A stretch of 64,000 nucleotides of DNA from Chloroflexota bacterium (GCA_036732045.1 DAINDD010000002.1:16089-80088); one strand, 5' to 3'; positions 1,171 through 31,695 are shown, counted from the first letter of the stretch. The notes: generated from the letters alone by a model not told the origin. Made by a program: numbers and translations.

Positions 1171-1188
1171 GACGTTCGCGCCGCCGGT

Positions 1189-2841: not shown

Positions 2842-3824
2842 GCGGCCTCGGCTAGCCGATGGAAGTGTTCCGCGATGCTGTGGCGAATCCAGTCTCGGTC
2901 ACCTAAGTGGTGGTGAAGTCGCGATTCGAGCGCGCTGATGGGATATAGATTCTGCGGAGCTCGCGGGTCCCAAGCTGGTGTGGTCGCGAAGCGCGGCAGG
3001 ATTGCCGTTGAACAATTCGCAAGAAGCATGGCATCGTCCTTGCCGATCATTGCCGAAACTTCGATTCGGACGACGCCGGCAAGTGAGTAGTCGAGTCTTC
3101 CGCGGGGACCGACTCGCATGTACCAGGAGTAGCGACTACTCCCTTCAGTTCCGAACTGAAAGATTGGGGTGCGTGTCCCCGTTTCAAGAGCACTGAGTGT
3201 CCGCATTTGTTCGGCGTTCAAGTAATTCTTGGAGTGGGTCTTTACGTAGCCAAGAATAGCCTCTTCGAGTGGGAGAAGGTACGTAAGGGGTCCGTCTACG
3301 AACGTGAGCGCCGCGAGCCCAGCGCACTCGCGCGCGAGGTCTCCCTCCAATTTGCGCATGAGCACCTGCAACTGAGCCAAGACCTTGGCGCGGGTATTCT
3401 CTTTGACCCCGGCCCCCACGTAGTTGAGCGTCAGACTTCCTGCCGGGATGAGCATCGTCTCGTGCCTTCGATCCGCCCCGATGACGATTCGTCGTTGTAC
3501 TTCTTCGCGGTGAATCTCGGCCTTGCCGTGACGGTGGACGGTGACACCCGCTGCGTATGAACCGAGCAATCCGTACGCCAGCGAGTCATTCGCCTCGTCC
3601 ACGATGCCAGTATCGACGCGACGGACGCCGTCAATGAAGAAAATTGACTCGGGCGTTTCAGATGCAAGTGGCCGGATGACCTGCCAGTCATTCGTCTCGA
3701 CGAAGGCGTCTACATTGTCTGGCTCGTCGTCCTCAAGCTGCAACGCGGACTCGTATGTGGGAGTCCAGGGGTCGAGGCGAAGGGTGTGGGGCATACGTAG
3801 CCGATTGTCGCCCGCCGTTGTCAT
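2838..3824 (-). CDS. nurA: NurA-like 5'-3' nuclease
   Basis: 328 aa. N-terminal IFFIDGVRRVD Asp motif in a NurA-like position. Size, and operon position immediately upstream of and overlapping herA. Confidence 0.55.
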   Translation of the reverse strand: MTTAGDNRLRMPHTLRLDPWTPTYESALQLEDDEPDNVDAFVETNDWQVIRPLASETPESIFFIDGVRRVDTGIVDEANDSLAYGLLGSYAAGVTVHRHGKAEIHREEVQRRIVIGADRRHETMLIPAGSLTLNYVGAGVKENTRAKVLAQLQVLMRKLEGDLARECAGLAALTFVDGPLTYLLPLEEAILGYVKTHSKNYLNAEQMRTLSALETGTRTPIFQFGTEGSSRYSWYMRVGPRGRLDYSLAGVVRIEVSAMIGKDDAMLLANCSTAILPRFATTPAWDPRAPQNLYPISALESRLHHHLGDRDWIRHSIAEHFHRLAEAA

Positions 3825-11648: not shown

Positions 11649-12251
11649 TCAATACTCGACGACGACATCAAACGCCGAAAGCAGTGACATTGCCTCTGGG
11701 TAAGAGAATTTCGCCTTCTTAGCCTTGTTGGCGGTGAGATCGATCGCATAGCCTTTCGCGCCGACGAAGTTTGCACCGCTGAGGTTGGTGTGCAGAAACT
11801 TGGCGCCGGTAAAGTCGGTCCGCTGGCAATCAGCTCCCGTCAGGTCGGCTTCCGAAAAATCGACTTCCAGCCCGCTGCAGTTGGACAGTCTCTTGAGCCT
11901 GAGGCCAAAGAAGCTCGAGTAGTCCAGCGCACACCGGTCGAAGGCTGCGGAGAACAGTAGCCGATCAGTCTTTGTAGAGCCAACGACTGTCCAATCAACG
12001 CCGGCCAGTTTCGAGTCGAGAAACTCCACGTCCACGAACCGGCAGTTCGGCGCGCTGAGAAGGCTCAGGTCGCAGGCCATAAACTTGCAATTGGTGAACC
12101 GGCAGTGGGAGAGTGCAGCCTCCGTCAGGATGCATCTCTCGAACGTGCAAGAGTCGAAATCGCTGGATGTAATCCGGACGCCCGGCAATTCGGCGCCCTT
12201 GAAGGTTACTCGTATATGGTTCTGGTGGCTTTCGGACAGCTCCACAGACAT
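11649..12251 (-). CDS. pentapeptide-repeat protein, Qnr/McbG/MfpA-like
   Basis: 200 aa. Two blocks of A(D/N)LxG pentapeptide repeats and a Qnr-like C-terminus (EAMSLLSAFDVVVEY compared with Qnr ...ASLLMERLGIAVIG). GC is lower than the neighbours. Confidence 0.7.
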   Translation of the reverse strand: MSVELSESHQNHIRVTFKGAELPGVRITSSDFDSCTFERCILTEAALSHCRFTNCKFMACDLSLLSAPNCRFVDVEFLDSKLAGVDWTVVGSTKTDRLLFSAAFDRCALDYSSFFGLRLKRLSNCSGLEVDFSEADLTGADCQRTDFTGAKFLHTNLSGANFVGAKGYAIDLTANKAKKAKFSYPEAMSLLSAFDVVVEY

Positions 12252-12331: not shown

Positions 12332-13054
12332 ATGGTTCTCGGGAGGGTGGCTGAATCCCAGCGCGAGGAAGCGCCGCGTGTCCTTATCGTGGACGACGAC
12401 GAGTCGCTGCTCGCCGCCCTGGACCTGGCGCTGACGCGTCGCGGGTTCCGCATCGTCACGGCAAGGGAGGCCGGCGAAGCCTTCGGACGCCTGGAAGACG
12501 CCGGGCAAGTCGACTTGATAGTGCTGGACGTGATGATGCCCGGCATGGACGGCGTCACCCTCTGCCGCTTGCTGCGCGACAGGACGTCAACGCCGATGCT
12601 GATGCTGACCGCCCGCGACGCCGTCGCTGACCGCATCGCGGGACTGGAAGCGGGAGCAGACGACTACTTGCAGAAGCCGTTCGACCTGGACGAGCTGGTC
12701 GCGCGGCTGCTGGCGCTGCGCCGACGGGCGCTTCGGAACCAGGGCCCCGAAGGCGTCGAGCGCACCTACGAAGACATCACGCTGGACTCGCGCACCTGGT
12801 CGGCGCGCCGGGCCGGCCGGAACCTGGGCTTGACACCGACGGAGTTTCGCATCCTGGAGCAGTTGCTGCAGTCGCCGGAATCCGTGCGCAGGCGTGAGGA
12901 CCTGATGCGCGCGATTTGGGGAGAGAACTGGGTGGAGGCGGATTCCGGCACGCTGGAGGTGCACATCGCCAACCTCAGACAGAAACTGGAGCGCGGCGGT
13001 GGCTCGCGGCTGATCCACACGATCCGCGGCGTCGGCTACGTGCTGAAAGCGTAA
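12332..13054 (+). CDS. OmpR-family response regulator
   Basis: Receiver + trans_reg_C (VLIVDDDES, DVMMPGMDG, GVGYVLK). Confidence 0.9.
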   Translation: MVLGRVAESQREEAPRVLIVDDDESLLAALDLALTRRGFRIVTAREAGEAFGRLEDAGQVDLIVLDVMMPGMDGVTLCRLLRDRTSTPMLMLTARDAVADRIAGLEAGADDYLQKPFDLDELVARLLALRRRALRNQGPEGVERTYEDITLDSRTWSARRAGRNLGLTPTEFRILEQLLQSPESVRRREDLMRAIWGENWVEADSGTLEVHIANLRQKLERGGGSRLIHTIRGVGYVLKA

Positions 13055-13057
13055 GCG

Positions 13058-14458
13058 ATGTCGTTGCGGCTGCGGCTGACGTTCCTCTGCGTGGCCCTGG
13101 TGGCGGTCGTCATCGCCGGGTTCGCCGTGACGACGTATTTCATAGCACGGCACCGGATCTACAGCAGCTTCGACGATAGCCTCACCGCGCAGGCCAACGC
13201 GATCCTGGGGCTGCTGCCGGCCGGCACGCTCTCGGAGCCGCTGGTGCAGGGCCGGCGCCTGGAACTCGATCAGCAAGCGGCCGCAGGGGCGCTCTTCCAG
13301 ATCAGGACGACCGACGGCAACGTGCTCTACTCTTCCTTCCGCGGCTCGCCTGCACTGCTGCCGCGGAGCAAATCGCTCGATGTCCAGGCGTTCTTCGAAG
13401 GCAACGTTGCCGGTGGGCATTTGCGGTTCCTGTATCTGCCCGTCGACACACCGGACCACAACGGCGGCAGCATTGAGGTGGGCCGCTCAACGAACGAGAC
13501 GTTCGAAGCTCTATCGGAGATGCTGTACGCGCTTGTGGCGGGCAGCGTGCTTGCGCTGTTCCTGACGTTTGTGCCTGCCTACTACATCGCTGGACGGGCC
13601 CTTCGCCCGATCCGCGATGTCTCGCGCCTGGCCCGGCGGATCGAGCGCACCGGCGACTTCAGCCAGCGGTTGCAAGACCGTAAGACGAGCGACGAGACGG
13701 GCGAGCTAATCGCGACGTTCAACGAGATGATCGAGCGCGTCGACCAGACACTCGTCGCGCAGACGGAGTTCCTCGCCGACTCGTCCCACGAGATGCGTCG
13801 TCCGCTGACGATCCTCCGCACTAACCTCGACATCTTGCGCGATCCGGGGCTGCCCGCCGCCGACCGGGCGGCCTGCCTGGAGCGCATGTCCCGAGAGGCA
13901 CACGCGATGAGCGCCCTCGTCGGCGATCTCCTGCTCCTGACCCGCGACAAGACGCAGTCGTTGCAGCGCGTTCACGTAGATTTCTCGCGGCTCTGCGCAG
14001 ATGAGGTCTCGCGCATAGGCTTTGCGGACGGACAAGCGCCCATCGAACCGGACATCGAGCCGGGGCTGGTCGTGATCGGCGACGAAGAGCGGCTGCGCCA
14101 GGTGGTGAAGAATCTGCTCGAGAATGCGGTGAAGTACACTCCGAAAGACGGCCAGGTCCGCCTCCGATTGCACGGCGACGGCGACAACGTCCGTCTCGAA
14201 GTACAGGACACGGGCATCGGCATCCCGGAGGCCGAGCTGGCGCGCATCTTTGACCGCTTCTATCGAGGCACCGAGGCCCGCTCGATGCACGGTGAAGGCG
14301 TCGGGCTTGGCCTGGCGATCGTCAAGTACGTTGTCGAAGGCCACGGCGGTTCGATCAGTGCGTCCGCATCGCCGGGCGGCGGAGCGACGTTCGCTGTAGT
14401 GCTGCCGCGAGGGCCGGTGGTGTCAGAACCTCTTACGGATTTGTTGGCCGTCTCTTAA
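13058..14458 (+). CDS. sensor histidine kinase (TM + HAMP + HisKA + HATPase_c)
   Basis: H-box SHEMRRPLT, N-box LLENAVKYT, G-boxes DTGIGIP and GVGLGLAI. Start is 4 nt after the RR stop. Confidence 0.9.
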   Translation: MSLRLRLTFLCVALVAVVIAGFAVTTYFIARHRIYSSFDDSLTAQANAILGLLPAGTLSEPLVQGRRLELDQQAAAGALFQIRTTDGNVLYSSFRGSPALLPRSKSLDVQAFFEGNVAGGHLRFLYLPVDTPDHNGGSIEVGRSTNETFEALSEMLYALVAGSVLALFLTFVPAYYIAGRALRPIRDVSRLARRIERTGDFSQRLQDRKTSDETGELIATFNEMIERVDQTLVAQTEFLADSSHEMRRPLTILRTNLDILRDPGLPAADRAACLERMSREAHAMSALVGDLLLLTRDKTQSLQRVHVDFSRLCADEVSRIGFADGQAPIEPDIEPGLVVIGDEERLRQVVKNLLENAVKYTPKDGQVRLRLHGDGDNVRLEVQDTGIGIPEAELARIFDRFYRGTEARSMHGEGVGLGLAIVKYVVEGHGGSISASASPGGGATFAVVLPRGPVVSEPLTDLLAVS

Positions 14459-14566
14459 TGCTTCCTTAGGGTTTGGAAACAGCCTTCGCCCGTAACCTTC
14501 AATTGAGGCTTCCCTCGTATCGTTATAGCCTCTGAACAAATGGCTGAGGAGCAGGGAGGGGCTGGT

Positions 14567-15712
14567 ATGAAAGTACCCCCAGCGGCCGTCTACTTCCCGG
14601 AGGAAGACAAACCGCAGATCGCCGCACGCATCATCGAATGTCTGGAAAGCGGAGCACTGACGCTCGGCAAGTACGGGCGCCAGCTGGAGGAAGAGTTCGC
14701 GCGGCTCTGCGACGTCCCTTACGCCGTCGCCGTCAACAGCGGCACCAGCGCGCTGGAGATCATCCTGCGTGCGATCGGCGTCGAAGGGCGCGAGGTGATC
14801 GTGCCCAGCAACACCTTCTTCGCCACGGCGGCCGCGGTCCAGCATGCCGGCGGCCGCGTGCGCTTCGCCGATTGCGACCCGGACACCTTCGCGCTCGACG
14901 TGCAGAGCCTGCGCTCAAACCTGAACGCAAATACGGCGGCCGTAATCCTCGTCCACATCGGCGGCATCATCACGCCGCGCATCCGCGAGATCGAGAAGAT
15001 CTGCCGGCAGGTCGGCGTGCCGCTGGTCGAGGACGCGGCCCACGCGCACGGCTCGACACTGGAAGGCCGCCCGGCGGGCAGCTTCGGTCTGGCGGCGGCG
15101 TTCTCGTTCTACCCGACGAAGGTGATGACCAGCGGCGAAGGCGGCATCATAACGACGCGCGACGAGGCGATCCACCGTGAAGCGATGATCTATCGCGACC
15201 AGGGCAAGGAAGGGTTCACCACCAACTACCACGTTCGCCTGGGTTACAACTGGCGGATGAGCGAGCCCCACGCCGTGATCGGCCTCGCGCAGATGGCGCG
15301 CCTGCCCGAGTTTATCGCGAGGCGACAGGAGATCGCGGCGGAGTACGACGCCGGCATCGGCGCCCTGCGCGACCACATCCGGCCCGTGCGGCCGACGCGT
15401 GGCTCCGTCAGCAACTACTACAAGTACATGGCGATGATCGACGGCGTCGACCGCGCCGACCTCAAGCGCACGATGCGCGAGCAGTTCGACGTCGGCCTGA
15501 GCGGCGAGGTGTACGAGACGCCATGTCACTTGCAGCCGATCTTCGCCCAGTTCCTGGACGGCCCGCTGCCCCAGGCCGAGAAGATCTGCGCGGGCCACAT
15601 CTGCCTGCCGGTCTCCGCCAAGATGACCCTTGAGGACGCGCGTTACGTGCTGACATCGCTGGGCGCGGCGCTTGAGTCGCTCAAAGCGACGCCCGTAGAG
15701 GTGGGAGGCTAG
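14567..15712 (+). CDS. DegT/DnrJ/EryC1/StrS-family PLP-dependent sugar aminotransferase (ArnB-like)
   Basis: Family signature around the PLP lysine (FSFYPTKVMTSGEGG). GGAGG RBS before the ATG at 14567. Confidence 0.9.
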   Translation: MKVPPAAVYFPEEDKPQIAARIIECLESGALTLGKYGRQLEEEFARLCDVPYAVAVNSGTSALEIILRAIGVEGREVIVPSNTFFATAAAVQHAGGRVRFADCDPDTFALDVQSLRSNLNANTAAVILVHIGGIITPRIREIEKICRQVGVPLVEDAAHAHGSTLEGRPAGSFGLAAAFSFYPTKVMTSGEGGIITTRDEAIHREAMIYRDQGKEGFTTNYHVRLGYNWRMSEPHAVIGLAQMARLPEFIARRQEIAAEYDAGIGALRDHIRPVRPTRGSVSNYYKYMAMIDGVDRADLKRTMREQFDVGLSGEVYETPCHLQPIFAQFLDGPLPQAEKICAGHICLPVSAKMTLEDARYVLTSLGAALESLKATPVEVGG

Positions 15713-15713
15713 C

Positions 15714-16661
15714 GTGCGAGTTGGAGTAACGGGAGCCTCCGGTTTCATCGGGTCGCACGTGGTCGACGCGCTTATCGAAGCTGGCCACGAGGTCGCCGTG
15801 ATCGATCTGCGCGCGCCGCACCGTCCCGACGTTGAGCACCGCGAGGCGAGCATTCTGGACAGCGCGGCGATGAATGATGCCGTCGCCGGCCTCGCCGCGC
15901 TCTTCCACCTGGCCGCCGTCGCCGACGTCAACGATGTCGTCGCCGACCCGGTCGCCGCGATCGAGCTTAACGTCACGGGCACAGTCCGCGCGCTGGAAGC
16001 GGCGCGCAAGAACGGCGTCAAGCGCTTCTTGCTGGCCAGCACGGTCTGGGTCTACTCCTCGATCCCGCCGATGGATGGGGACACCGTGGACGAGACCGCG
16101 CTCGTCGACCCGGCCGCCGTTCGTCACGTCTACACGACATCGAAGGTCGCGGCGGAGATGCTCTGCCACGACTACTGGAACATGCACAAGCTCCCGTTCA
16201 CAGTTCTGCGTTACGGGATCCCCTACGGCCCGCGCATGCGGTTCTCTCTCGTCATCCCGGTCTTCGTGCGCAAAGCCTTGCGCGGCGAGGCGCTGACGCT
16301 GAGCGGGGACGGCAGCCAGCACCGCAAGTTCGTCTACGTGGAAGACCTGGCGCGGGCGCACGTGCTCGCGCTGGGCGACGCGGCGCAGAACCAGACGTAC
16401 AACCTGGACGGCGCTGAGAAGATCAGCATTCTCCGCATCGCTGAGACCGTCCTCCGCCTGACCGGCGCCGACCGGCCGATCGAGTTCATGCCCGCCCGTG
16501 CGGGCGATTACACCGGCAAGGACGTTGTCAGCGAGAAGGCGGCGCGGGAACTGGGCTGGGCGCCGCAGATCGACTTCGACGAAGGAATGAGGCGCACTGT
16601 GCCGTGGCTGGTCGAGCGGATTCGCGCGGGGGAGGAGACGGCAGCGGCGACTCCGCGATGA
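15714..16661 (+). CDS. NAD-dependent epimerase/dehydratase (SDR, GalE/ArnA-decarboxylase-like)
   Basis: VGVTGASGFIGSHVV Rossmann motif, YxxxK (YTTSK). GTG start right after the upstream stop. Confidence 0.85.
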   Translation: MRVGVTGASGFIGSHVVDALIEAGHEVAVIDLRAPHRPDVEHREASILDSAAMNDAVAGLAALFHLAAVADVNDVVADPVAAIELNVTGTVRALEAARKNGVKRFLLASTVWVYSSIPPMDGDTVDETALVDPAAVRHVYTTSKVAAEMLCHDYWNMHKLPFTVLRYGIPYGPRMRFSLVIPVFVRKALRGEALTLSGDGSQHRKFVYVEDLARAHVLALGDAAQNQTYNLDGAEKISILRIAETVLRLTGADRPIEFMPARAGDYTGKDVVSEKAARELGWAPQIDFDEGMRRTVPWLVERIRAGEETAAATPR

Positions 16662-18727
16662 CGATGCTTCAACGGGCGCCGGAAGCGCGCCCCAAAGCGA
16701 CGGGCCCCCGCAGAATCGCCGTCGTGCCTGTCTTCAACGAAGAGCCCACCGTCGTTGGCGTTCTTGAAGAGCTCCTGACGCTGGTCGACGAGATCGTCGT
16801 CGTCGATGACGGCTCAACCGACCGCTCGCGCGAGGTGATCCTCGACTGGTCGCTGGGACGCCAGCACGTACACACGATCCTCTTCAACCAGAACCAGGGC
16901 CTCTCCTCTGCGTACTTCGCAGCGTTCCGGGAGATCGGCGCCAGGCTGCACGCCGGGGAGCTGGCAGGTGACGATCTCGTGATCACCGTCGACGCCGACG
17001 GCCAGCACGACCCGACCGACCTCGATCGCCTTGCGGCGCGCGTGACCGAGGACGGCTACGACGCGGCCATCGCCCGCCGTGACATGTCCGGTTACAGCTT
17101 TGTCAAGCGCGCCGGCAACGGCTTGCTTTCGGTTTGGGCGTCGGTCTGGGCGGGGACGCGCCTCTACGATGTCGAGTCTGGATTCCGGGTATTTCGCGCC
17201 GGCCCGCTGGTGGAGGCTCTGCGGTACTACCACGGCTTTCGCTACAGCGAGACGGTGGAGGTCGCCGTCGTCCTGCCGCGTCTCGGGTACCGCATCGCCA
17301 ACGACGTCAGCGTGCCGGTGCCGGTGCAGCGCTCGCGGACGCGGATCAGCGACGGCATTATCGATGCGCTGGCGATGATTGGCGCCTGGTGGCGCGTTGT
17401 CGCCGGACGGCACAAGCCGGCGGACATGCCGGCCTGGTCGATGTACGTCGTGCCGGTGCTGGCGCTGCTGGCGCTTCTCTTCGGCGCTGGCGATATCCTG
17501 GCTCATCGGCTCTTCCTTGCCTCCGACTCGATGCACAACTACGCGCACATCTGGTACCTCAGCGATCAGATCTTCCACCACGCCACCATCCCGATCCACG
17601 TCTCGTTGCTGGACAGCGGCAAGGCTGCGACGTTCCCCTACGCGATCGGGCCGTACCTAGCCGGGGCGTTGATCTACCCGATCTTCGGGAACTGGGCCGT
17701 GAGCCTGCTGATGGCGATCGCGGTTGTCGGCACGGTCTGGGCGGCGGGCGTCGTCCGGCCGGCCATGCGCGACCCGTGGCTCATCGCGCTGTTCGTGCTC
17801 AACCCCTTCTTCATCGATGCCGCGTTCAGTTTTCAGTTCGCGTCGCTCTGGTCCGCCCTCTTCTTCTTTCTGTTCGTCCGCGCGTTCGAGCGGCAACAGG
17901 CAGTGCCCGCGGCCCTGCTCCTTTGGCTCTGCGTTAGCAGCCAGCCGGTGATGGGATCGCTGGCGGCCGGCGTCTACGGGCTGGCGATTCTCGCCCTGCA
18001 CCGGGAGCGCTTTGGCCGGTTGCTGATGATCGGCGCGCCCGTCGGCCTCGCTCTAATCCCGATCTACTGGATGACGTTGATGACCCCGTCGCTCTCCGAC
18101 AACACGGCTGCCTTCGTGCGCAGTACGGCGGGCTCGATCGCCGCGCGCGGGACGTTCTTCGCCGCCCCGTTCGCCCTTAGCGCTGCGGCCCCGCTCCTGC
18201 GGCGCTACTACCGGCCGGCGTTGTCGTTCGGAGTCGTATCGGCGGTCGTCGGCGTGCTTTTTATGGGTGGGATCATCCGCTTCTACCGCTCGCCCAGCGG
18301 CTACTACGGCGTCCTGCACGACAGCAGCGACGTCTATGCGCAGTACTTCGCTTCGCCGGCATTTCAGGCTGGCGCGACGTACAGAGTGCTGGAGCCGAGC
18401 GAGCGCGAGGACGGGATGTACCGCTTTATCCAGCACCGGGCGGTGCTCTCCAATGAGTTCTTTACGGAAAGCACGATGTTCCGCAACTGGAGCACCGATC
18501 AGTACGGCTGTTACGCGGCGTACAAAGGGATTGACTACGTGGTTGTGGAGCGCGCCTGGGAGGAGCGTAGCCACCTGAACGAGGGCCACCTCTTGCAGTC
18601 GCTGGTCAGCAGCGGTAGCGCCAGCGTTTCTTACACCGATCCGGGCGGGCGCTTCGTGGTCTACAATATCCAACCGTTCGTCTCCGTACGGCAGAAGCCC
18701 GCGGCGCTCTCCGGGTGTTCGCTCTGA
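16658..18727 (+). CDS. GT2 polyprenyl-phosphate sugar synthase-like domain (ArnC/DPM1/GtrB type) fused to a large polytopic membrane domain plus a soluble C-terminal domain
   Basis: N-terminus IAVVPVFNEE...VVVDDGSTDRS...VDADGQHDP (GT-A, DxD). Then about 10 predicted TM helices and a roughly 150-aa C-terminal soluble part. Start ATG overlaps the epimerase stop. Confidence 0.8.
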   Translation: MTMLQRAPEARPKATGPRRIAVVPVFNEEPTVVGVLEELLTLVDEIVVVDDGSTDRSREVILDWSLGRQHVHTILFNQNQGLSSAYFAAFREIGARLHAGELAGDDLVITVDADGQHDPTDLDRLAARVTEDGYDAAIARRDMSGYSFVKRAGNGLLSVWASVWAGTRLYDVESGFRVFRAGPLVEALRYYHGFRYSETVEVAVVLPRLGYRIANDVSVPVPVQRSRTRISDGIIDALAMIGAWWRVVAGRHKPADMPAWSMYVVPVLALLALLFGAGDILAHRLFLASDSMHNYAHIWYLSDQIFHHATIPIHVSLLDSGKAATFPYAIGPYLAGALIYPIFGNWAVSLLMAIAVVGTVWAAGVVRPAMRDPWLIALFVLNPFFIDAAFSFQFASLWSALFFFLFVRAFERQQAVPAALLLWLCVSSQPVMGSLAAGVYGLAILALHRERFGRLLMIGAPVGLALIPIYWMTLMTPSLSDNTAAFVRSTAGSIAARGTFFAAPFALSAAAPLLRRYYRPALSFGVVSAVVGVLFMGGIIRFYRSPSGYYGVLHDSSDVYAQYFASPAFQAGATYRVLEPSEREDGMYRFIQHRAVLSNEFFTESTMFRNWSTDQYGCYAAYKGIDYVVVERAWEERSHLNEGHLLQSLVSSGSASVSYTDPGGRFVVYNIQPFVSVRQKPAALSGCSL

Positions 18728-20733
18728 TGATCAAGTCCGCGTTCGGCGCTGCCAGCGATCTGCTCCGGCTCCTGCAGTCGGCGCGAGTGCGGCGCTACCT
18801 GGCGCTCACGTTCTTCGTCGATGCAGGGCTCGTCTTCGTCCTGCTTGTCGCCATCCAGTCCTACCTCCCGGAGCAGTACGGAGCCAGCGAGGCGCTCGCC
18901 GGCTACGTGCTGGCTGCGTACGGCGCAGCGAAGCTCGCAGGGCAGCTCGGCGCCGGCTGGGTGATCGACCGCGTCGGCCCGAGGCGGGGCCTGATCGCTG
19001 GACTTTGCCTGACGGGCGCAGGCCAGGCCACGATGATTCTCGGCATCGTGCAGCCGGAGGCGGTAATACCGGCGGCGCTTCTCTACGGCCTTGGTGGTGC
19101 GATGATCTGGCCGTCGGCCTACGCGCTGGCAGCTGGAGAGTTCGAGGAGAGTGAACGGGCGCGGCTCAGCGCGGGCATGACGGTAACGACGGGCGTTGCT
19201 CTGGCGACGGCGCTGTGCCTCGGCCTGGCGCTGCCGGCGAGCTTCCCGTACGCCGCGGCGATCGCAGTCTGCGTCGCTTGCACGGTTGGTGCTCTGGCGG
19301 CTGCGCGCAGCTTCCCGGCCGCCGCCGCGCGGGCCGACGAGGCGACGCGTGACGCTCGCCGCCAGCTTCTCGAATCAATCCGGGACATCGTTTCTGCGCG
19401 GCGGGTCGCTTTCTCGCTGATCATTCTCTTGCAGGCGGCCATCCTCGGCGCGCTGCTGGCGATCTTCCGCAGCTACGGCCGGGAGACGCTGCAGGTTTCG
19501 CTGCGAGAAGAGATGCTGATGCTGCTGCCCGCCGGGGCGATCGGCGCTGGGGCGGTTGTACTTGGCGGCCTGCTGGCTGACCGCTTCGGCCGCATACCTG
19601 TTCTGGGCAGCGGCTACCTGCTAGCCACGTTCTCGATTTGGGGACTCTCCACGACCACCGATCACAGCGCCGTTGTACCGCTGGCCGCTCTCTGCGCCGC
19701 CGGGCTCGGCCTCGCCTTGCCGTGTACGAGCGCGCTTTCGCTCGACCTTTCGCGGAGCGCCGGCACGGGCACGTTGCTTGGTTGGTTCCTGACGATGGAG
19801 GGCGCCGGACACGTGATCGGACCGGCCGCCGGAGCTTGGGTGAACCACAAGGGCGGCTCCGCGCCGGTGTTCTGGCTCGTTGGTGGACTCGCGGCGGCGA
19901 TCGCCGCCGTCGCACTCGTGCCGCCGATCTGGGCGCGGCGGCCCGACGTGGAGCCTGTACGCCATCGTCTTCGGGCGCTGCTCTCTGGCACCGCGAAGGG
20001 AGCGCTTGTCTTCAGTCTTGGCTTCCCGGTAATTGCGACGTACTTTGCGTGGGACCCTGGCTCGCAGCTCTACGGTGACATAATCACGCACGGTCCACGT
20101 GACCGCATGGAGGTCGCCATCACGTTCGATGACGGGCCGAACGACCCCTGGACGCTACGCATCGCCGACAAGCTCGACCAGTACAGCGTGAGAGGCACCT
20201 TCTTCATCGTCGGCCAGAATGCCGACGTCCATCCGGAGATCGTGCGGAACCTGGCGCAGCGCGGCGAGTTGATTGGCAACCACTCGTACCGGCACCGCAA
20301 ATCGGACGCCGTGACCCAGCTTGGCTACGGGGAGCTGTGGCGGGCCGAGACCGCTATCGCGCATGCAGCGGGCGTCTGCCCGGCCATTTACCGCCCTCCC
20401 AACGGCTTCCATACGCCGTGGCAGCTGCACACGGTGGCGAGGCACGGGATGAAGACGGTGACCTGGGACGTAATACCGCGTGACTGGAAAGACCCGCCGT
20501 CCGACGTGATCGTTAGCCGGGTGCTCGATTCGGTGCAGCCAGGTTCGATCATCCTCTTGCACGACGGCGACGACACGAACCAGGGCACTGACCGCTCGGC
20601 CACGCTGAACGCACTGCCCGGCATCATCGAAGGCCTGCGCGCCAAGGGCTACGACATCGTGCGACTCGATCAGTTGTTGTCCATCCAACCGTACTTGCCG
20701 ACGTGCGACGGATTGCAGGCGGTAAACTCATGA
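18715..20733 (+). CDS. MFS transporter fused to a CE4 (NodB-homology) polysaccharide deacetylase domain
   Basis: About 12 TM MFS N-terminal portion. C-terminus has NodB motifs TFDDGP, GNHSYRH, and ILLHDG. Confidence 0.8.
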   Translation: MFALMIKSAFGAASDLLRLLQSARVRRYLALTFFVDAGLVFVLLVAIQSYLPEQYGASEALAGYVLAAYGAAKLAGQLGAGWVIDRVGPRRGLIAGLCLTGAGQATMILGIVQPEAVIPAALLYGLGGAMIWPSAYALAAGEFEESERARLSAGMTVTTGVALATALCLGLALPASFPYAAAIAVCVACTVGALAAARSFPAAAARADEATRDARRQLLESIRDIVSARRVAFSLIILLQAAILGALLAIFRSYGRETLQVSLREEMLMLLPAGAIGAGAVVLGGLLADRFGRIPVLGSGYLLATFSIWGLSTTTDHSAVVPLAALCAAGLGLALPCTSALSLDLSRSAGTGTLLGWFLTMEGAGHVIGPAAGAWVNHKGGSAPVFWLVGGLAAAIAAVALVPPIWARRPDVEPVRHRLRALLSGTAKGALVFSLGFPVIATYFAWDPGSQLYGDIITHGPRDRMEVAITFDDGPNDPWTLRIADKLDQYSVRGTFFIVGQNADVHPEIVRNLAQRGELIGNHSYRHRKSDAVTQLGYGELWRAETAIAHAAGVCPAIYRPPNGFHTPWQLHTVARHGMKTVTWDVIPRDWKDPPSDVIVSRVLDSVQPGSIILLHDGDDTNQGTDRSATLNALPGIIEGLRAKGYDIVRLDQLLSIQPYLPTCDGLQAVNS

Positions 20734-21641
20734 GCCGCCGAGTGCTCGTAACGGGCGGCGCAGGGTTCATCGGCTCGCACGTCGCCCAGAGGCTGTACTC
20801 GCTCGGCTGGGATACGCACGTGTTAGACAGCCTGGCGACCGGTGATCGCGCCAACGTCCCGGCCGGCGTGCCGCTGCACATTGCGGACATCCGGGCCGAA
20901 GGAGAACTGCTGGCGGTCCTCCGCACAGGCTACGACGCGATCGTGCACTGCGCGGCCCAGACGAGCGTTGAGCGCTCGATGAAGGATCCCGAATTCGACC
21001 GCGAGGTAAATGTTACCGGTACCCGTCACCTGCTCGTAGCCGCGCGCGAGACCGGCGTCGGTCGCTTCGTGTTCATCTCGTCTGGAGGCGCGATTTACGG
21101 CGAGACTGCGGAGCCCGCTACGGAGGCCAGCGTCCCGGCGCCGCGCAGCTTCTATGGAATGCACAAGTACGTGGCCGAGGAGTTCGCGCGCGCAGCGGGT
21201 GTTCCGTTCGCGATCCTGCGCCCGTCCAACGTCTACGGCGCGCGCCAGCGTTCAGACGCCGAGGGTGGGGTTCTGTCGATCTTCCGCGAGAGTCTTATGG
21301 CCGGTCTGCCGATCGAGCTCCACGGCGACGGTCGGCAGGTACGCGACTTCGTCTATGTGGACGACATCGTCGATGCGGTCGTCCTCGCGGCAGACACACA
21401 GGCGGACGTGATCTGGAACGTCTGCAGCGGCGTCGCGACGACGGTCAGTGAAGCCGCGCGCATCATCGGCGCGGAAATCGGCTGCGATCCGGTCATAGAG
21501 CGGAAGCCGCGCCGGGCGGGGGACATCGACAAGTCGCTGCTCAGCCCGGCCCGCATCCTCGCGACCGACGCTTGGGGGCCGCCCGTTGCCCTCGACGCGG
21601 GGCTGCGACGGCTCGCTGCGGACGCTTCCGCCGTTGGTTAG
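20730..21641 (+). CDS. NAD-dependent epimerase/dehydratase (UDP-sugar 4-epimerase-like)
   Basis: VLVTGGAGFIGSHV, YGMHKY (YxxxK). ATG overlaps the upstream stop (ATGA). Confidence 0.85.
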   Translation: MSRRVLVTGGAGFIGSHVAQRLYSLGWDTHVLDSLATGDRANVPAGVPLHIADIRAEGELLAVLRTGYDAIVHCAAQTSVERSMKDPEFDREVNVTGTRHLLVAARETGVGRFVFISSGGAIYGETAEPATEASVPAPRSFYGMHKYVAEEFARAAGVPFAILRPSNVYGARQRSDAEGGVLSIFRESLMAGLPIELHGDGRQVRDFVYVDDIVDAVVLAADTQADVIWNVCSGVATTVSEAARIIGAEIGCDPVIERKPRRAGDIDKSLLSPARILATDAWGPPVALDAGLRRLAADASAVG

Positions 21642-24680: not shown

Positions 24681-25988
24681 ATGTCCCTACTCACACGCAA
24701 CACCCGTGCCTTGACCACGGCGTTGTTCTTGTCCCTGGCAGTGCTCCTCGGCAGCACTGCTCTGCTGGCCCTGAACACCGTTCATGGCTCGGACCATCGG
24801 GATGGCCCAGCGACGACCGCGAACTCGCAGCTGGACATCACCGACCTCTACGCGTTCCGGAGCCCGACCAATAACGACGATCTGGTCGTGGCCCTGGGCG
24901 TGAATGGCCTGGTGACCCCGGACCAGAACGGCAACGTCAAGTTCAGCTCGACGGGGTCGTACACGATCCATGTCGACAACAACGTTGACTTCGTGGACAA
25001 AGCTACGGTCAAGGTCACCTTCGACAACAGCACGCCGCAGAAGTTCACAATCGCCGGACTGTCAGGTGGCTCGATCACCGGCGCCGTCACGGCACCCGGC
25101 GCGACGCCGAACATCGTGACGTCCGGCGGCATCAAGGCGTTTGCCGGCCTGCGCGACGACCCGTTCTTCTTCGACCTCACCGCCTTCAAGAAGTTTGTCG
25201 CCGGACCGTACGTGCCTGCGGCCGGACTCCGCGCGGCGGCTGACGGTGCGCCTGCGGACACCTTCGCCGGAACGAACGTACTGTACATGGCGCTCGAGTT
25301 CCCGATCACGGCGCTCACGGGCGGGACGGCGTCGAACACTGGCACGATCAGGGCCTGGGCCTCGACCGACACGGGCAGCGGCCAGTTGGACCGCGTCGGC
25401 ATCCCGGCCCTCAACACGGCGCTCGTCCACGGGGACGCTGCCAAAGACACCTACAACAAGGGCACTCCAGCGACCGACGTGGCCAACAACCTGGCCAACG
25501 CACAGACGTCCATCCAAGGACTGCGTGACGCGGTTGACCCGGTGCTCAACGGCCCTGTTGGGTCAGAGGACAACGGCCCGCTGGGCAACCTGACCTCGGC
25601 GCAGGTGGCGGGGGCATTGACCCCGGACATCGTAACTATCGACTTCTCCAAGCCCGTCGCTTTCCCCAATGGCCGGCAGCTGACAGACGATGTGATCGAC
25701 ACGGCTCTCCAGCTGATCCTCAACCGCAAGGCGGGCATCACCGACGGCATCAACGCCAACGACAAGACCTTCGGCACGACGTTCCCGTTCCTGGCTGACC
25801 CGTTCCTCCCTGCCGCGGCGACGGCGAGCGCCAGCCCAACGGTAACGCCCGGCAACCTGCCGAATACTGGTGGCGACCCGGGGAGCAGCAGTACAAACAT
25901 GCTGCTTGAGATGGCGATGATCGCAGCCGGAGTAATGCTGATAGTGTCTGGCGGCAGCCTGATCGTGGCCCGCCGAGGCAACCGCTAA
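24681..25988 (+). CDS. secreted DUF4331-family protein with a C-terminal LPXTG sortase anchor
   Basis: Signal peptide. DUF4331 N-terminal signature SDHRDGP...DITDLYAF. C-terminus LPNTGG + hydrophobic segment + RRGNR. Confidence 0.8.
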   Translation: MSLLTRNTRALTTALFLSLAVLLGSTALLALNTVHGSDHRDGPATTANSQLDITDLYAFRSPTNNDDLVVALGVNGLVTPDQNGNVKFSSTGSYTIHVDNNVDFVDKATVKVTFDNSTPQKFTIAGLSGGSITGAVTAPGATPNIVTSGGIKAFAGLRDDPFFFDLTAFKKFVAGPYVPAAGLRAAADGAPADTFAGTNVLYMALEFPITALTGGTASNTGTIRAWASTDTGSGQLDRVGIPALNTALVHGDAAKDTYNKGTPATDVANNLANAQTSIQGLRDAVDPVLNGPVGSEDNGPLGNLTSAQVAGALTPDIVTIDFSKPVAFPNGRQLTDDVIDTALQLILNRKAGITDGINANDKTFGTTFPFLADPFLPAAATASASPTVTPGNLPNTGGDPGSSSTNMLLEMAMIAAGVMLIVSGGSLIVARRGNR

Positions 25989-26017
25989 CCAACTGAACCA
26001 ATAGAAGGGACCGAGAG

Positions 26018-27358
26018 ATGAGAGTAGCGACGACCTGGAAACCGGGGCGAAGCCTGAGCGGACTCGCCTTGGCCCTCATCGGCGGAGCGCTGATCGCGTT
26101 CTCCATCGCTCGGATAGTGGCGAACGGCGGCGGCGGCTCCAGCAGCCCCGCCGCCGGCTCCGCCGCCGACCCGTACGCAGCGACCAGCGCGACCATCGCG
26201 TTCTGGGAAGCGCGCGTCCACTCCGACCCCGCCGACTTCACTGCCTACAACCACCTCGCCGAAGGCTATGTGCAGCGCGGCCGAGAGACTGGGGACGTCG
26301 GCGACTACACTCGCGCAGAGGCCGCCGTCGATGGCTCGCTAGCGTCGATCCCCGGCGAAAACTACACCGCCTACGCGCTCAAGGCCTATCTGCAGAACGT
26401 CCGGCACGACTTCACAAACTCGATGGCCACGGCACTCCACGCGGAGACGCTAAACTCGGCCGACCCGTACGCGTCGTCGGTTGTCGGCGACGACCAGGTC
26501 GCGCTCGGCCAGTACGACGCGGCTTTCCAGACGTACTCAGCGCTCGTTCAGAGCTCGCCCGATCTTTCGACGTTCAGCCGGATGGCGTTGATCTACGAGA
26601 TCCGCGGCGACCTCCCGAACGCCGAAAGCGCCTGGAAGAACGCGCTCGCGAATGACGCTGGCGGCAACCCAGAGAGCACGGCCTGGGCGCACACGCAGTA
26701 CGGCACGTTCCTATTCAACCGGAATCGCATCGACGAGGCGGACACGCAGTATGCCGAGGCCCTCAAGGCTTACCCAACCTACATTCACGCGCTGGCGGGT
26801 CAGGCCAGCGTCGCGGCGGCGCGGGGCGACTACGACCGCTCGATCGGCCTCTACACCCAGGTAACCGAGCGCCAGCCGCTACCGCAGTACGTCGCGGCAC
26901 TCGGCGACGTCTACGCTGTTGCGGGCAAGCAAACCCAAGCGGACCGCCAGTACGCGCTGATCGGCGCGATCGGACAGCTTTACCAGGCCAACGGAATCAA
27001 CGTTGACCTGCAGATGTCGCTCTTCTTCGCGGATCACGACAAGAGCATCAGCAATGCCGTGCAGCAGGCGCTGGCCGTGCGCCAGGCCCAGCCCGGCAGC
27101 ATCTACACGGCGGACGCCGTCGCCTGGGCCCTGTACAAAGCCGGCCAGTACGACCAGGCGCTTCTCTATGCGAACACCGCGCTGGCGGTGGGAACGCAAG
27201 ACGCGAGCCTCTTCTACCACGCCGGCATGATTCAGAAGGCGCTCGGCAACAAAGCCGCGGCGCAGGACGACCTGCAGAAGGCGATCGCGATCAACTCGCA
27301 CTTCTCGCCGCTGCAGGCGCCGATCGCGCAGCAGGCACTTTCGGAGCTGGCTGGATGA
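26018..27358 (+). CDS. TPR-repeat protein with an N-terminal membrane anchor
   Basis: N-terminal TM, then multiple TPR-like repeats (AxxxYxxAL...). Confidence 0.75.
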   Translation: MRVATTWKPGRSLSGLALALIGGALIAFSIARIVANGGGGSSSPAAGSAADPYAATSATIAFWEARVHSDPADFTAYNHLAEGYVQRGRETGDVGDYTRAEAAVDGSLASIPGENYTAYALKAYLQNVRHDFTNSMATALHAETLNSADPYASSVVGDDQVALGQYDAAFQTYSALVQSSPDLSTFSRMALIYEIRGDLPNAESAWKNALANDAGGNPESTAWAHTQYGTFLFNRNRIDEADTQYAEALKAYPTYIHALAGQASVAAARGDYDRSIGLYTQVTERQPLPQYVAALGDVYAVAGKQTQADRQYALIGAIGQLYQANGINVDLQMSLFFADHDKSISNAVQQALAVRQAQPGSIYTADAVAWALYKAGQYDQALLYANTALAVGTQDASLFYHAGMIQKALGNKAAAQDDLQKAIAINSHFSPLQAPIAQQALSELAG

Positions 27359-28884
27359 CGATTAGCATGGCGACTCGGCCGCTGATGCTTATTGGTGTCG
27401 TCGCAGCGCTGCTTGCGGTCGCATTACTCGCGCTGGCGGCGCCGCAGATCGCCAGCGCCCACCCGCTAGGCAACTTTACAGTCAACCGCTACAGCCGGAT
27501 TGAGGTCTACTCGGACAAACTACGCGTCAACTACGTGCTGGATATGGCTGAAATACCGACGTTCCAGGACGCCACGAACGTCGACACCAACGGCGATGGC
27601 ACCGTCTCCGACGCTGAGGCCCAGGCCTACGCCGCGAGCAAGGCAGTTGAGTTGGGAACGCACCTCGGGCTTCAACTGAACGGCGAGTCCCAGAAGCTGC
27701 ATCTGACCGACAGCCATGTCTCCTTTCCCGAAGGGCAGGGAGGCCTCCAGACGACGCGCCTGACCGCGACCTACGAAGCACCGGCGCCCTCCGGCCAGGT
27801 CGCGCTGGCGTACGTGGATGGCAACTTCGCGGATCGCCTCGGTTGGCGCGAAATCGTCGTTCTGCCGGGCACCGGAGCCGAGCTTACAGGAGATTTCCCG
27901 ACACAGGACGTGAGCCAGGCGCTGACGTCGTATCCCGGCGACAAAGTCGCAAGCCCGTTGGACAGCACAAGCGTCGCCTTCACTTTCAACGACGCCAGCG
28001 CGATGGCGGCTCCGGTTCTCTCCGGCATTCCCGTCGCGGCGAAGGCGCCGGAGCGTTCAGGCACGGCATTCGTCTCGCTGATCAACACCGATAACATCAC
28101 GCTCGAAGTGATCCTGCTGGCGCTGCTGGCAGCGTTCGGATTCGGCGCGTTGCACGCCGTCGAGCCAGGCCATGGCAAGACCATGGTGGCGGCGTACTTC
28201 GTCGGCGTGAAGGGAACCGCCCGGCAAGCGCTGTCGCTGGGGATGGTCGTCGCAATCACGCACACGATTGGCGTCTTAGGCATCGGCCTGGTCGCCATCT
28301 TCGGCTCGCAATGGATCCTGCCGGAGACGCTCTATCCCTGGCTGAGCCTCGCCTCAGGGCTGATGGTGCTGGCGTTGGGGTTACGGCTCATCGTACAGCG
28401 CAGCGGCGGCCAGCTGATGCACCGTCTTTCGCACCTGTCGATCTTCGGACACCACCACCACTCGCACGAGCACGACCCCACTGCATCGACTTCGACTGGC
28501 ATCCCGCCGTGGAAGACGCTGATCGCCGTCGGTCTCGCAGACGGTCTGACGCCGAGCCCCTCAGCGCTCGTTGTGCTGATCGCGGCGATCTCGCTGCACC
28601 GCGTCGGACTTGGCGTCGCGCTAATCGTCGCCTTCAGCATTGGCCTGGCGACAGTGCTGGCGTCGATCTCGCTCGGCCTGCTTTTCTTCCGCCAGGCTAT
28701 GGATGGCATCAGCCGCAGGGCCTCGACGACGCGCCTCCCACTTTTGTCGCGCATCGCGCCGTCCCTAACGAGCGAGGGACTCATCGTGCGCGCGCTGCCG
28801 ATGGCCGGTGCAATCGCTCTGGTGGCCGTTGGTCTCCTGCTGACGCTGCGCGCGCTCGGGCAGCCGGTCGGCGTTAGCATCTAG
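27355..28884 (+). CDS. RcnA/NicO-like nickel/cobalt permease fused to a roughly 230-aa N-terminal extracytoplasmic domain
   Basis: HAVEPGHGK signature, His-rich loop (HHHHSHEHD), 6 TM. Start overlaps the TPR stop (ATGA). Confidence 0.75.
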   Translation: MTISMATRPLMLIGVVAALLAVALLALAAPQIASAHPLGNFTVNRYSRIEVYSDKLRVNYVLDMAEIPTFQDATNVDTNGDGTVSDAEAQAYAASKAVELGTHLGLQLNGESQKLHLTDSHVSFPEGQGGLQTTRLTATYEAPAPSGQVALAYVDGNFADRLGWREIVVLPGTGAELTGDFPTQDVSQALTSYPGDKVASPLDSTSVAFTFNDASAMAAPVLSGIPVAAKAPERSGTAFVSLINTDNITLEVILLALLAAFGFGALHAVEPGHGKTMVAAYFVGVKGTARQALSLGMVVAITHTIGVLGIGLVAIFGSQWILPETLYPWLSLASGLMVLALGLRLIVQRSGGQLMHRLSHLSIFGHHHHSHEHDPTASTSTGIPPWKTLIAVGLADGLTPSPSALVVLIAAISLHRVGLGVALIVAFSIGLATVLASISLGLLFFRQAMDGISRRASTTRLPLLSRIAPSLTSEGLIVRALPMAGAIALVAVGLLLTLRALGQPVGVSI

Positions 28885-30186: not shown

Positions 30187-31638
30187 CTAGAGCTGGAGTG
30201 ACTTGACCTCGAGGTACTCCTCAAGACCGTACTTGCCAAGCTCGCGGCCGTGGCCGGACTGCTTGAAGCCACCGAACGGAGCGTTGACGTTGAAGCCGCC
30301 GCCGTTGATCTCCACCTGGCCTGTGCGCAGGCGGCGGGCGACGCGCTTGGCGCGCTCAGGGTCGCCGGACCAAACGCCACCGGCGAGGCCATATGGGGAG
30401 TCGTTGGCGATACGGATGGCGTCTTCTTCGTCCTTGTAGCCGATGATCGAAAGGACGGGCCCGAAGATCTCTTCCTGGGCGATCGCCATGTCGTTGCGCA
30501 CGTTGGAGAAGACCGTCGGCTCTACGAAGTAGCCGGTCTTGTGAGCGGTCTCAGCGCCGCCGGTGACCAGCTTCGCGCCTTCTTCCTGGCCCTTCTTGAT
30601 GTAGCCGCGGACGCGCTTGAACTGCGTCTCGGAGACCAGCGGACCGAGCAGGCTGCCTTCGGCGAAGGGGTCGCCGGTCTTGAAGTTGGCGGCGGCCTTG
30701 GCGGCGAACTTCTCGGCCTCAGCCATCTTTCCTTCGGGGACGAGCATGCGGGTGAGCGCGCTGCAAGTCTGGCCGGAGTTCTGGTAGCACTTGGCGACGC
30801 CGTCAGTCACGGCACGCTCAAAGTCAGCGTCATCCAGGATGATGTTGGCCGATTTGCCGCCGAGCTCCAGGGCGACTCGCTTGACGGTCTGCGCTGCCAG
30901 CTCGCTGACGCGCTTGCCGGCGCGAGTGGAGCCGGTGAAGGAGACCATGTCGACGTCGGGGTGTGAGGCGATCGCCTCACCGACGACGGGGCCGAAGCCG
31001 GTCACGAGGTTGAAGACGCCGGCGGGAAGCCCGGCCGCGTCAATGCACTCAGCGAGGATGAAGGCGTTGAGCGGTGCGACTTCACTGGGCTTCACGATGA
31101 CGGTACAGCCTGCAGCTAGCGCGGGCGCAACCTTGGCCGCGATCTGGTGCAGCGGGTAGTTCCACGGTGTGATGCAGCCGACGACTCCGACCGGTTCCCT
31201 GACGACGAGCGAGTTGCCGATCGTTTCTTCGAACTGCGTCTGACCGGCGTTCACTGAGGCCATGCTGAACGTCACGATCGGCACGCCAGCCTGAATGAAG
31301 CGGGACAGCGGGATCGGCATGCCGACCTCTCGTGCAATTGTGACGGCGATCTCTTCCTGCTTGGCCTGGAGGTTGGCGGTGATCTTCTGCAGGTAGGCGA
31401 CGCGCTCCTCGACTGTGGTCTGTGACCACGTCTCGAAGGCGGCCTTGGCGGCCATCACTGCCTTGTCGATGTCTTCGGCGGTGCCTTCTGGGACGCGCCC
31501 GACGACTTCTTCCGTTGTGGGGTTGATCACATCGATCATGCCTGCGCCGGTTGGCTCAACCCAGGCACCGTTAATGTAGAACTTGTCGCGGATCTGGGCA
31601 TCGCCGGCCGGGGCGGGCTTCGTTGCTTGCTGTGTCAT
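30187..31638 (-). CDS. NAD(P)-dependent aldehyde dehydrogenase
   Basis: ALDH family ([10 protein letters not shown]; catalytic Cys region GQTCSA). Confidence 0.9.
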
Positions 31639-31695
31639 TTGTGCTCTCCTTCTGGTGGAAGGGCCGAAGCCGCTCCGCTGCGTCTATATCCAGCC

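Follow-up and report, generated by a model that had tools for sequence, protein, structure and literature searches.

A GT2 glycosyltransferase fused to a predicted GT-C-fold membrane module in an Arn-like gene cassette of Chloroflexota

Introduction

Can a single polypeptide make a lipid-linked sugar on one face of the membrane and use it on the other? This question is raised by a gene at 16658..18727 (+) in a stretch of 64,000 nucleotides from a Chloroflexota bacterium (GCA_036732045.1, DAINDD010000002.1:16089-80088), the whole of which is referred to here as the window. The gene encodes a protein of 689 residues, in which an N-terminal glycosyltransferase domain of family 2 (GT2) is followed by a polytopic membrane module and a soluble C-terminal domain. 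It is part of a cassette with the order response regulator, histidine kinase, aminotransferase, short-chain dehydrogenase/reductase (SDR), GT2·GT-C fusion, major facilitator superfamily (MFS) protein, carbohydrate esterase family 4 (CE4) deacetylase and GalE-like epimerase.

A first-pass annotation had interpreted the protein as a fusion of the synthase that forms a lipid-linked sugar donor with the GT-C-type transferase that consumes it. The analysis presented here supports this interpretation by predicted fold, a conserved motif, predicted topology and gene linkage, and it is proposed on these grounds that both halves are catalytic and that the donor passes from one to the other. We consider it rather probable that one protein performs both the first and the last membrane step of lipid-carrier-mediated glycosylation, within an Arn-like cassette.

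New with respect to known systems would be the presence of synthase and transferase in one polypeptide, with a transferase from a so far undescribed GT-C sequence family. GT-C enzymes are difficult to identify from sequence, and which donor they use is usually a matter of guesswork; a natural fusion, together with split forms, would tie the new family to a polyprenyl-phosphate sugar synthase.

Results

The GT2 domain is of the non-processive synthase type

The open reading frame (ORF) of the fusion spans 16604..18727 (+), and translation from the ATG at 16658 gives the 689-residue product, which has the length of most homologues. This ATG overlaps the stop codon of the upstream SDR gene as ATGA, and the stop codon of the fusion itself is located at 18725-18727. 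Homologues of the fusion protein form 127 clusters at E<=1e-3, with 262 representatives in a library of 1.84 billion proteins and 40 loci in species-representative genomes; the gene is therefore not a chance ORF. Its assignment as a fusion of GT2 and GT-C fold is based on the ORF, the homologues, Pfam, AlphaFold2 (AF2) models and Foldseek searches.

The cytoplasmic GT-A domain (residues 19-228; 16712..17341, +) is delimited by a match to PF00535, by sequence matches in the PDB and by Foldseek. The PF00535 match covers residues 22-151 (E 9e-24; 84.7 bits against a cut-off of 23.3) and is the sole Pfam match of the whole protein. Both GT-A motifs named in the first-pass annotation, VVDDGSTDRS and DADGQHDP, are found inside it. 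In the full-length AF2 model, residues 19-228 adopt a Rossmann-like alpha/beta fold (predicted local distance difference test, pLDDT, 88). The sequence matches in the PDB are ArnC (E 1.5e-12), the Pyrococcus DPMS (5mlz) and GtrB, and the matched chains of 322-363 residues agree with the size of about 320 residues that had been given for ArnC and GtrB. In a Foldseek search with the full-length model, ArnC and GtrB occupy ranks 1-14.

The motifs PVxNE, DDGSxD, DAD and D-x-x-GFR of the domain align with those of ArnC. The DAD sequence (D112-A113-D114; 16991..16999, +), a metal- and nucleotide-binding motif of the DxD type that is invariant in 63 aligned family sequences, corresponds to 'LDADLQ' in ArnC. 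Invariant or nearly so in the same 63 sequences are, besides D112-A-D114, P24, N27, E28, D50, D51, S53, D171, E173, S174, G175 and R177. In NCBIfam, the best models for the domain are ArnC, PpgS, AglJ, PgfS and the dolichyl-phosphate (Dol-P) hexose transferase. All of these matches are far below the equivalog cut-offs, and no equivalog-level identity was obtained (ArnC 49 against 529 bits, PpgS 44 against 370, AglJ 37 against 325). The QxxRW motif was found in none of the 63 family members. Because its nearest relatives are ArnC, DPMS and GtrB, and because QxxRW is absent from the family, the GT2 domain is of the non-processive polyprenyl-phosphate sugar synthase type, without being orthologous to any named enzyme.

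The lack of QxxRW also speaks against a processive exopolysaccharide synthase resembling PgaC/IcaA, NodC, BcsA or hyaluronan synthase, in which the membrane domain would be an export channel and the CE4 enzyme would partly deacetylate the polymer, as PgaB and IcaB do for poly-N-acetylglucosamine (PNAG). A GT2 protein with many transmembrane (TM) helices beside an extracytoplasmic CE4 enzyme does recall the pga/ica and nod loci, and there are weak NCBIfam matches to PgaC_IcaA (E 1.7e-6) and NodC (E 5e-4), as well as a Foldseek match of the full-length model to the Chlorella virus hyaluronan synthase, at rank 49. However, the PgaC match is confined to residues 21-116, with an E-value of 1e-6 compared to 1e-12 for ArnC, and all TM helices are located C-terminally of the GT-A domain, with none flanking it on the N-terminal side. 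Moreover, the membrane module matches GT-C enzymes and not synthase channels, and the conserved aminotransferase, SDR and MFS genes are foreign to PNAG and chitin-oligomer systems. We regard a processive synthase as very improbable.

The membrane module has a predicted GT-C fold

The C-terminal part of the fusion protein is not recognised by sequence searches. Its 435-440 residues have no Pfam match at E<=10, and 27 diverse family members of the membrane module have none at E<=0.1. NCBIfam gave no match on this part either, and one single-sequence and two profile searches of the PDB yielded nothing meaningful, with a prostaglandin receptor at E 0.18 as the only hit. Alignment with hhalign of the GT-C module family to the PMT_2 family (ArnT/PMT-like) found in these bacteria gave probabilities of 0.4% and 4.4%, at which D290 of the module (see below) could not be aligned to the loop-1 Asp of PMT_2.

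Since the Foldseek search with the full-length model returned matches to GT-A domains alone, a separate model was made of residues 255-689, built on 74 sequences (pLDDT 92; predicted TM-score, pTM, 0.91). With this model, ranks 1-24 of the search against the PDB are taken exclusively by GT-C enzymes: yeast and human STT3, ArnT, DPY19, AglB, ALG12, PglB, Pmt4, Pmt1, PIGU, ALG9 and EmbC. The best values were obtained for STT3 (7oci_F, E 2.6e-4) and ArnT (5f15, E 5.9e-4; 5ezm, TMq 0.51). Foldseek probabilities are 0.92-1.00 for 22 of the 24 matches, and 0.38 and 0.69 for the remaining two; TMq is 0.40-0.51 at ranks 1-18 and 0.18-0.31 at ranks 19-24. From rank 25 onward unrelated proteins, such as ABC transporters, appear at probabilities below 0.1, and ALG9, PimE and EmbB recur at ranks 27-34. 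The comparison with ArnT, PglB and PMT folds that the first-pass annotation had proposed thus turned out as it anticipated, with ArnT, PglB, STT3 and PMT all among the GT-C matches, and Pfam gave no resemblance of the C-terminal part to acyltransferases or to domains of unknown function. The models support a GT-C fold for the C-terminal module, which matches none of the Pfam, NCBIfam or PDB sequence families searched.

The predicted GT-C-fold membrane module comprises residues 259-540 (17432..18277, +), as judged from AF2, Foldseek and the loop charges of the family. It is linked to the GT-A domain by an amphipathic interface helix (residues 230-251; 17345..17410, +), which is helical in the AF2 model and leads into TM1; the segment before TM1 has a net charge of +2.5. 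From AF2 models and hydropathy, TM1 is formed by residues 259-282 and loop 1 by residues 283-329 (47 residues), the latter including a juxtamembrane helix at 291-308. Averaged over 63 sequences, the net charges of successive loops are +2.5/-1.4/+1.1/0/+1.3/0/+2.1/-0.8/+1.6/-1.0. By the positive-inside rule, this alternation supports nine TM helices with loop 1 and the C-terminal domain outside. The GT2 domain is accordingly predicted in the cytoplasm, with TM1 running from inside to outside and the 47-residue loop 1 as the first outer loop. The earlier count of about ten TM helices agrees with the number of hydrophobic helices, about ten, but AF2 and the charge alternation are better read as nine TM helices plus juxtamembrane helices.

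Residues 541-689 (18278..18724, +) form an alpha/beta domain, defined by AF2 secondary structure and conserved residues. The membrane part, for which about 450 residues had been assumed, is therefore smaller, with only some 280 residues in the membrane; the soluble domain of some 150 residues behind it is confirmed. Its location outside, also assumed in the first-pass annotation, is predicted by the positive-inside pattern and is consistent with two Cys residues in the tail, C618 and C687, conserved in 60 of the 63 sequences. ArnT and PglB are built alike, with a small outer domain C-terminal to the membrane domain.

The first outer loop carries the motif FLASDSMHNYAHIWY (17513..17557, +), with the family consensus FLAxDSxxNYxHxW. 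D290 in this motif (codon 17525-17527) is retained by all 63 close members and by all 27 distant ones, the latter at 22-47% identity. W299 is invariant in both sets, and H297 is present in 24 of the 27 distant members. G321, P327, Y328, W398, R576, F602 and E642 of the membrane module and tail are likewise invariant, and Q393, H429, R497 and H297 are near-invariant in the family. From its position and conservation, D290 is the likely residue for catalysis, with R497 as a possible ligand of the phosphate. Of the DExx/DD motif expected in the first loop, the invariant acidic residue is there, as a single Asp and not as part of a DE or DxD pair. Gln at position 429 is shared by the protein studied here with seven other aligned homologues, mostly its closest relatives.

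Conservation of the fusion

All 40 loci (numbered with the prefix L) are in metagenome-assembled genomes (MAGs). All but one are from Chloroflexota (Dehalococcoidia, 'Chloroflexia' and Thermomicrobiales), the exception being a 2.8-kb contig binned as Polyangia. GT2 and GT-C are encoded in one frame, with no stop in between, in 31 of the 40. The two are adjacent and frameshifted in three (L038, L046 and L047), the GT-C module stands alone in four, and in two the region is cut by a contig end. The uninterrupted frame is found in loci from different MAGs and different studies, at 36-83% identity. A split form is present in L002, where a DPM1-like GT2 gene directly follows a standalone membrane protein. 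The two halves are thus not unrelated neighbours, a possibility that the first-pass annotation had left open.

An assembly or gene-calling artefact that joined two adjacent genes is hardly credible in view of these data. All sources are metagenome assemblies, and the frameshifts in L038, L046 and L047 and a truncated copy in L001 would fit such an artefact, but the same uninterrupted frame recurs in 31 independent loci, the full-length AF2 model is confident over the junction (pLDDT 86-89 for residues 231-270), and the linker helix and TM1 are conserved. The truncated copy (P0057; L001 7936-9329) was considered as a further split form and rejected: only a remnant corresponding to residues 223-258 is left upstream, in another frame, and many genes on the contig are fragmented. 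It probably derives from a fusion by decay or mis-assembly, and less likely represents a true split form.

Standalone copies of the module in L040 (2956-5054), L041 (1144-3221) and L045 (8286-10273) directly follow a gene for an exported CE4 deacetylase. These CE4-GT-C units have the lipobox-like signals 'FSSC' and 'ASAC' and no GT2 gene within about 9 kb. The existence of such pairs without a GT2 indicates that the link between CE4 and GT-C is tighter than that between GT2 and GT-C, and that the module has a GT2-independent role.

Some cassettes contain a second, standalone paralogue of 441-451 residues, which is about 29% identical to the module (hhalign E 1e-45) and has the motif NDSLxNYxHVWYI. 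It lies beside the cassette of the fused gene in L004 (2114-3439, -) and L007 (13135-14490, -), and also in L030-L033, L038, L039, L044 and L047. The L006 cassette ends about 1.6 kb short of a classical PMT_2 gene (ArnT/PMT-like, PF13231, 449 residues; 14689-16038, -), which is read from the opposite strand. Among the relatives of this PMT_2 family, some (P0361-P0369) carry fused S-adenosylmethionine (SAM) methyltransferase domains. Neither a second GT-C paralogue nor a PMT_2 gene was found in the 64-kb window.

These additional genes bear on whether the fused module is itself an enzyme. The GT2 domain could be the sole catalyst, with the GT-C-like module serving as an anchor, a stabiliser or a presenter of substrate, comparable to Ppm1 D1 or to proteins of the GacJ/Rv3632 type; transfer to the acceptor would then be the task of another protein, such as the standalone paralogue or a PMT_2 enzyme. 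There is a precedent in the D1-D2 fusion of Mt-Ppm1, in which the membrane domain merely enhances activity and which is split in other species (PMC3485146). The second paralogue in some cassettes, the PMT_2 gene downstream of the L006 cassette and the replacement of the near-invariant His429 by Gln in the clade of the protein studied here also fit a non-catalytic module. We nevertheless consider it unlikely, as the invariant loop-1 Asp and the polar residues Q393, R497, R576 and E642 are maintained at 22-47% identity, a pattern typical of active sites, as standalone members pair with CE4 and no GT2 (L040, L041 and L045), and as the window holds neither of the two candidate substitutes.

The surrounding cassette

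The order of the cassette is kept down to 39-41% identity. The first gene encodes an OmpR/PhoB-type response regulator (12332..13054, +; Pfam Response_reg and Trans_reg_C), which occupies the same position in L004, L006, L007 and most of L008-L047. It is followed by a sensor histidine kinase (13058..14458, +) with the Pfam domains 2CSK_N, HAMP, HisKA and HATPase_c, also conserved in the cassette. The best NCBIfam match of the kinase is the heavy-metal sensor kinase model TIGR01386, at 223 bits and below the cut-off.

The two genes directly upstream of the fusion encode enzymes of nucleotide-sugar metabolism. One is a pyridoxal phosphate-dependent sugar aminotransferase of the DegT/ArnB family (14540..15712, +; PF01041, E 4e-101), with perosamine synthetase (E 2e-50), QdtB and ArnB (E ~1e-34) as nearest structures. 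The other is an extended SDR acting on a nucleotide sugar, of the UXS/ArnA-C-like decarboxylase or 4,6-dehydratase type (15714..16661, +; PF01370), with a GalE (E 1.8e-40) and the UDP-glucuronate decarboxylase UXS1 (E 2e-39) as nearest relatives in the PDB. The last gene of the cassette encodes a further SDR, a GalE-like nucleoside diphosphate (NDP)-sugar 4-epimerase (20730..21641, +; PF01370), nearest to the UDP-glucose 4-epimerase 2p5u (E 7e-59). Its listed ORF start is the GTG at 20703, and the ATG at 20730 shares the sequence ATGA with the stop codon of the preceding gene. No single sugar is indicated by the solved structures closest to the aminotransferase and the SDRs.

Directly downstream of the fusion, one ORF (18727..20733, +; PF07690 and PF01522) encodes an MFS protein with 12 TM helices, which is a candidate flippase, an extra helix TM13 (19996-20052, +; from hydropathy) and a CE4/NodB-type deacetylase domain (20095-20679, +; PF01522). 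The MFS part has a weak match to the LtaA flippase model. Because TM13 is inserted between the MFS and CE4 parts, the deacetylase is predicted outside the membrane. MFS and CE4 are also joined in a single ORF in L009, L010 and L018, and are separate genes in other loci. In all linked CE4 proteins examined, a signal peptide, lipobox or TM anchor is present; those encoded by separate genes have lipobox signals, TM anchors or multi-TM extensions. The CE4 family is NodB/PgdA-like. In the Thermomicrobiales-type loci L024-L029, L034, L043 and L046, the aminotransferase and first SDR genes are located upstream on the opposite strand.

In the window, overlaps of 1-4 nucleotides join the genes, as ATGA between the SDR and the fusion, TGATG between the fusion and the MFS gene, and ATGA between MFS-CE4 and the epimerase; the cassette is a conserved, translationally coupled operon. 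A promoter scan of the cassette found no promoter-like sites, and terminator-like sites were at chance level.

Beyond the epimerase, at 24681-28884 (+), follows a cluster of a DUF4331 protein, a tetratricopeptide-repeat protein and a NicO-type nickel transporter. Together with the TIGR01386 match of the kinase, this cluster makes a link of the cassette to metal stress possible. Genes for pentapeptide-repeat proteins are found directly upstream of the cassette on the opposite strand (11649-12251, -) and at 37267-38322 (+), and two tandem aldehyde dehydrogenase genes at 30187-33156 (-). Window ORFs without a Pfam match at E<=1e-6 are located at 19-1797 (+), 1189-2841 (-) and 2838-3824 (-); since the former two occupy overlapping stretches of opposite strands, they are probably not both genes.

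Discussion

Proposed mechanism

We hypothesize that the pathway starts in the cytoplasm with a nucleotide-activated amino sugar, the product of the aminotransferase and SDRs encoded nearby. The cytoplasmic GT2 domain, being of the ArnC/GtrB/DPM1 type, would load this putative substrate onto polyprenyl phosphate at the inner face of the membrane, and the adjacent MFS protein may flip the lipid-linked sugar to the outer face. There, the C-terminal module with its predicted GT-C fold would transfer the sugar to an envelope acceptor, and the extracytoplasmic CE4 enzyme may act on the lipid-linked sugar or on the product. Expression of the cassette would be set by the linked two-component system. 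From the fusion to a synthase and the adjacency of the MFS gene, we infer that the GT-C module uses a lipid-phosphate-linked donor on the outside. A bolder idea is that, in the Thermomicrobiales-type cassettes that lack an MFS gene, the fused membrane module itself might help to move the lipid-linked sugar across the membrane.

Several observations weigh against a protein that acts at both ends of such a pathway. All sources of the family are uncultured MAGs, and the functions are predictions from computation. The GT-C call is based on predicted structure with moderate Foldseek scores (E ~1e-4, TM ~0.5), and sequence profiles (Pfam, NCBIfam, PDB and hhalign against PMT_2) detect no GT-C family. 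Several GT-C families have a DE or DxD pair in loop 1, where a single invariant Asp is found here. Codon 429 (17942-17944) specifies Gln ('SSQP') in place of the His of 'STHP' that is present in 55 of 63 close and 26 of 27 distant members. Given the second paralogue and the PMT_2 gene in L006, the fused module need not be the sole user of the donor. In the cassette context, the Thermomicrobiales-type loci named above have no MFS gene next to the fusion, and no formyltransferase, N-acyltransferase or UDP-glucose dehydrogenase was found in the scanned major ORFs of the 64-kb window.

With these points taken into account, a fusion protein that both forms and consumes the lipid-linked donor remains our preferred explanation, and by analogy its most likely function would be to add an amino sugar to an envelope acceptor via a lipid carrier, in the manner of Arn. 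More tentatively, we put forward a broader picture that we hold to be quite possible, if short of probable: the GT-C module may represent an unclassified family restricted to Chloroflexota and mostly fused to its own synthase, which would serve a two-component-controlled pathway for an amino (cationic) sugar with a non-lipid-A acceptor, an MFS flippase and an extracytoplasmic CE4 enzyme.

The conserved, sensor-controlled operon suggests an inducible amino-sugar decoration in Chloroflexota, whose envelopes are poorly known. Such a pathway would be analogous to the Arn pathway of polymyxin resistance but aimed at a different acceptor, and, if the proposal is correct, would represent an Arn-like charge-remodelling system in bacteria without lipopolysaccharide (LPS). 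With both membrane steps on one polypeptide, the protein would be a handy system for studying how a donor formed on one side of the membrane is consumed on the other, and it offers a testable entry into a putative envelope-modification pathway and a new GT-C family.

Comparison with known systems

The Arn pathway of Gram-negative bacteria (ArnB, ArnA, ArnC, ArnD, ArnE/F and ArnT, controlled by PmrAB) resembles the cassette in several ways. ArnC is the nearest solved relative of the GT2 domain, and the C-terminal module has one of its best structural matches in ArnT, likewise a membrane domain with a small periplasmic domain at the C-terminus. The cassette furthermore has an aminotransferase of the DegT/ArnB family, a UXS/ArnA-C-like SDR, an enzyme of the polysaccharide-deacetylase family and a linked two-component system. 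In contrast to Arn, synthase and transferase are fused in the Chloroflexota cassette, the C-terminal module has no sequence similarity to ArnT/PMT_2, and neither the cassette nor the other major window ORFs scanned contain a formyltransferase domain. The candidate flippase is an MFS protein instead of the small ArnE/F pair, and the cassette has no ArnE/F-type gene. The CE4 enzyme is NodB/PgdA-like and predicted outside the membrane, whereas ArnD acts on the cytoplasmic face. In Chloroflexota hosts, lipid A is an unlikely acceptor. The full Arn gene set is thus absent from the cassette, which lacks a formyltransferase, an ArnE/F-type gene and an equivalog-level match to any Arn protein.

Related schemes with other partners are found in Francisella (FlmF2/NaxD/FlmK) and Bordetella (LgmA/LgmC/LgmB), which combine a GT2 enzyme similar to ArnC and a GT-C enzyme similar to ArnT with a member of the polysaccharide-deacetylase family, by which the amine of a lipid-linked N-acetylhexosamine is exposed. 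In these Flm and Lgm systems the components are separate proteins, the deacetylase is on the cytoplasmic face, and the acceptor is a lipid A phosphate.

The three-component systems (GtrA/GtrB/GtrC, CsbB/GtcA/YfhO, Gml and Pgf) likewise use a GT2 synthase, a flippase and an outer GT-C transferase, and the GT2 domain has GtrB among its top structural matches. There, the components are separate proteins and the flippase is of the GtrA type, in contrast to the MFS candidate of the cassette, and the GT-C module described here is outside the Pfam and NCBIfam families searched.

A non-LPS acceptor is known from the mycobacterial galactosamine pathway, in a bacterium that has no lipid A: the GT2 enzyme PpgS (Rv3631) makes polyprenyl-phosphate-N-acetylgalactosamine (GalNAc), and the GT-C enzyme Rv3779 uses the galactosamine (GalN)/GalNAc donor to modify arabinogalactan (PMC3485146). 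Among the NCBIfam models matched by the GT2 domain, that of PpgS ranks second (E 2e-11). Unlike the fusion, PpgS, Rv3632 and Rv3779 are encoded by separate genes, and the score of the GT2 domain with the PpgS model is 44 bits against a cut-off of 370. We know of no aminotransferase or SDR genes at the PpgS locus.

In nature, a GT2 synthase of polyprenyl-phosphate sugars is also found joined to a polytopic membrane domain in Mycobacterium tuberculosis Ppm1 (Rv2051c), which consists of the membrane domain D1 and the polyprenyl-phosphate-mannose synthase D2 and corresponds to two genes in related species (PMC3485146). Its order is reversed compared to the Chloroflexota protein, with the membrane domain at the N-terminus, and D1 merely enhances synthase activity. 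D1 has six TM segments and is Lnt-like, not a GT-C enzyme. A search of the full-text literature for a fusion of GT2 and GT-C found none, in a partial corpus in which absence is weak evidence.

Taken together, these comparisons place the cassette, by analogy, among pathways that would work like the Arn, Lgm and PpgS-Rv3779 pathways, by which the envelope acquires cationic sugars, and like the Gtr-type three-component systems, and distinguish it from a member of the Arn operon.

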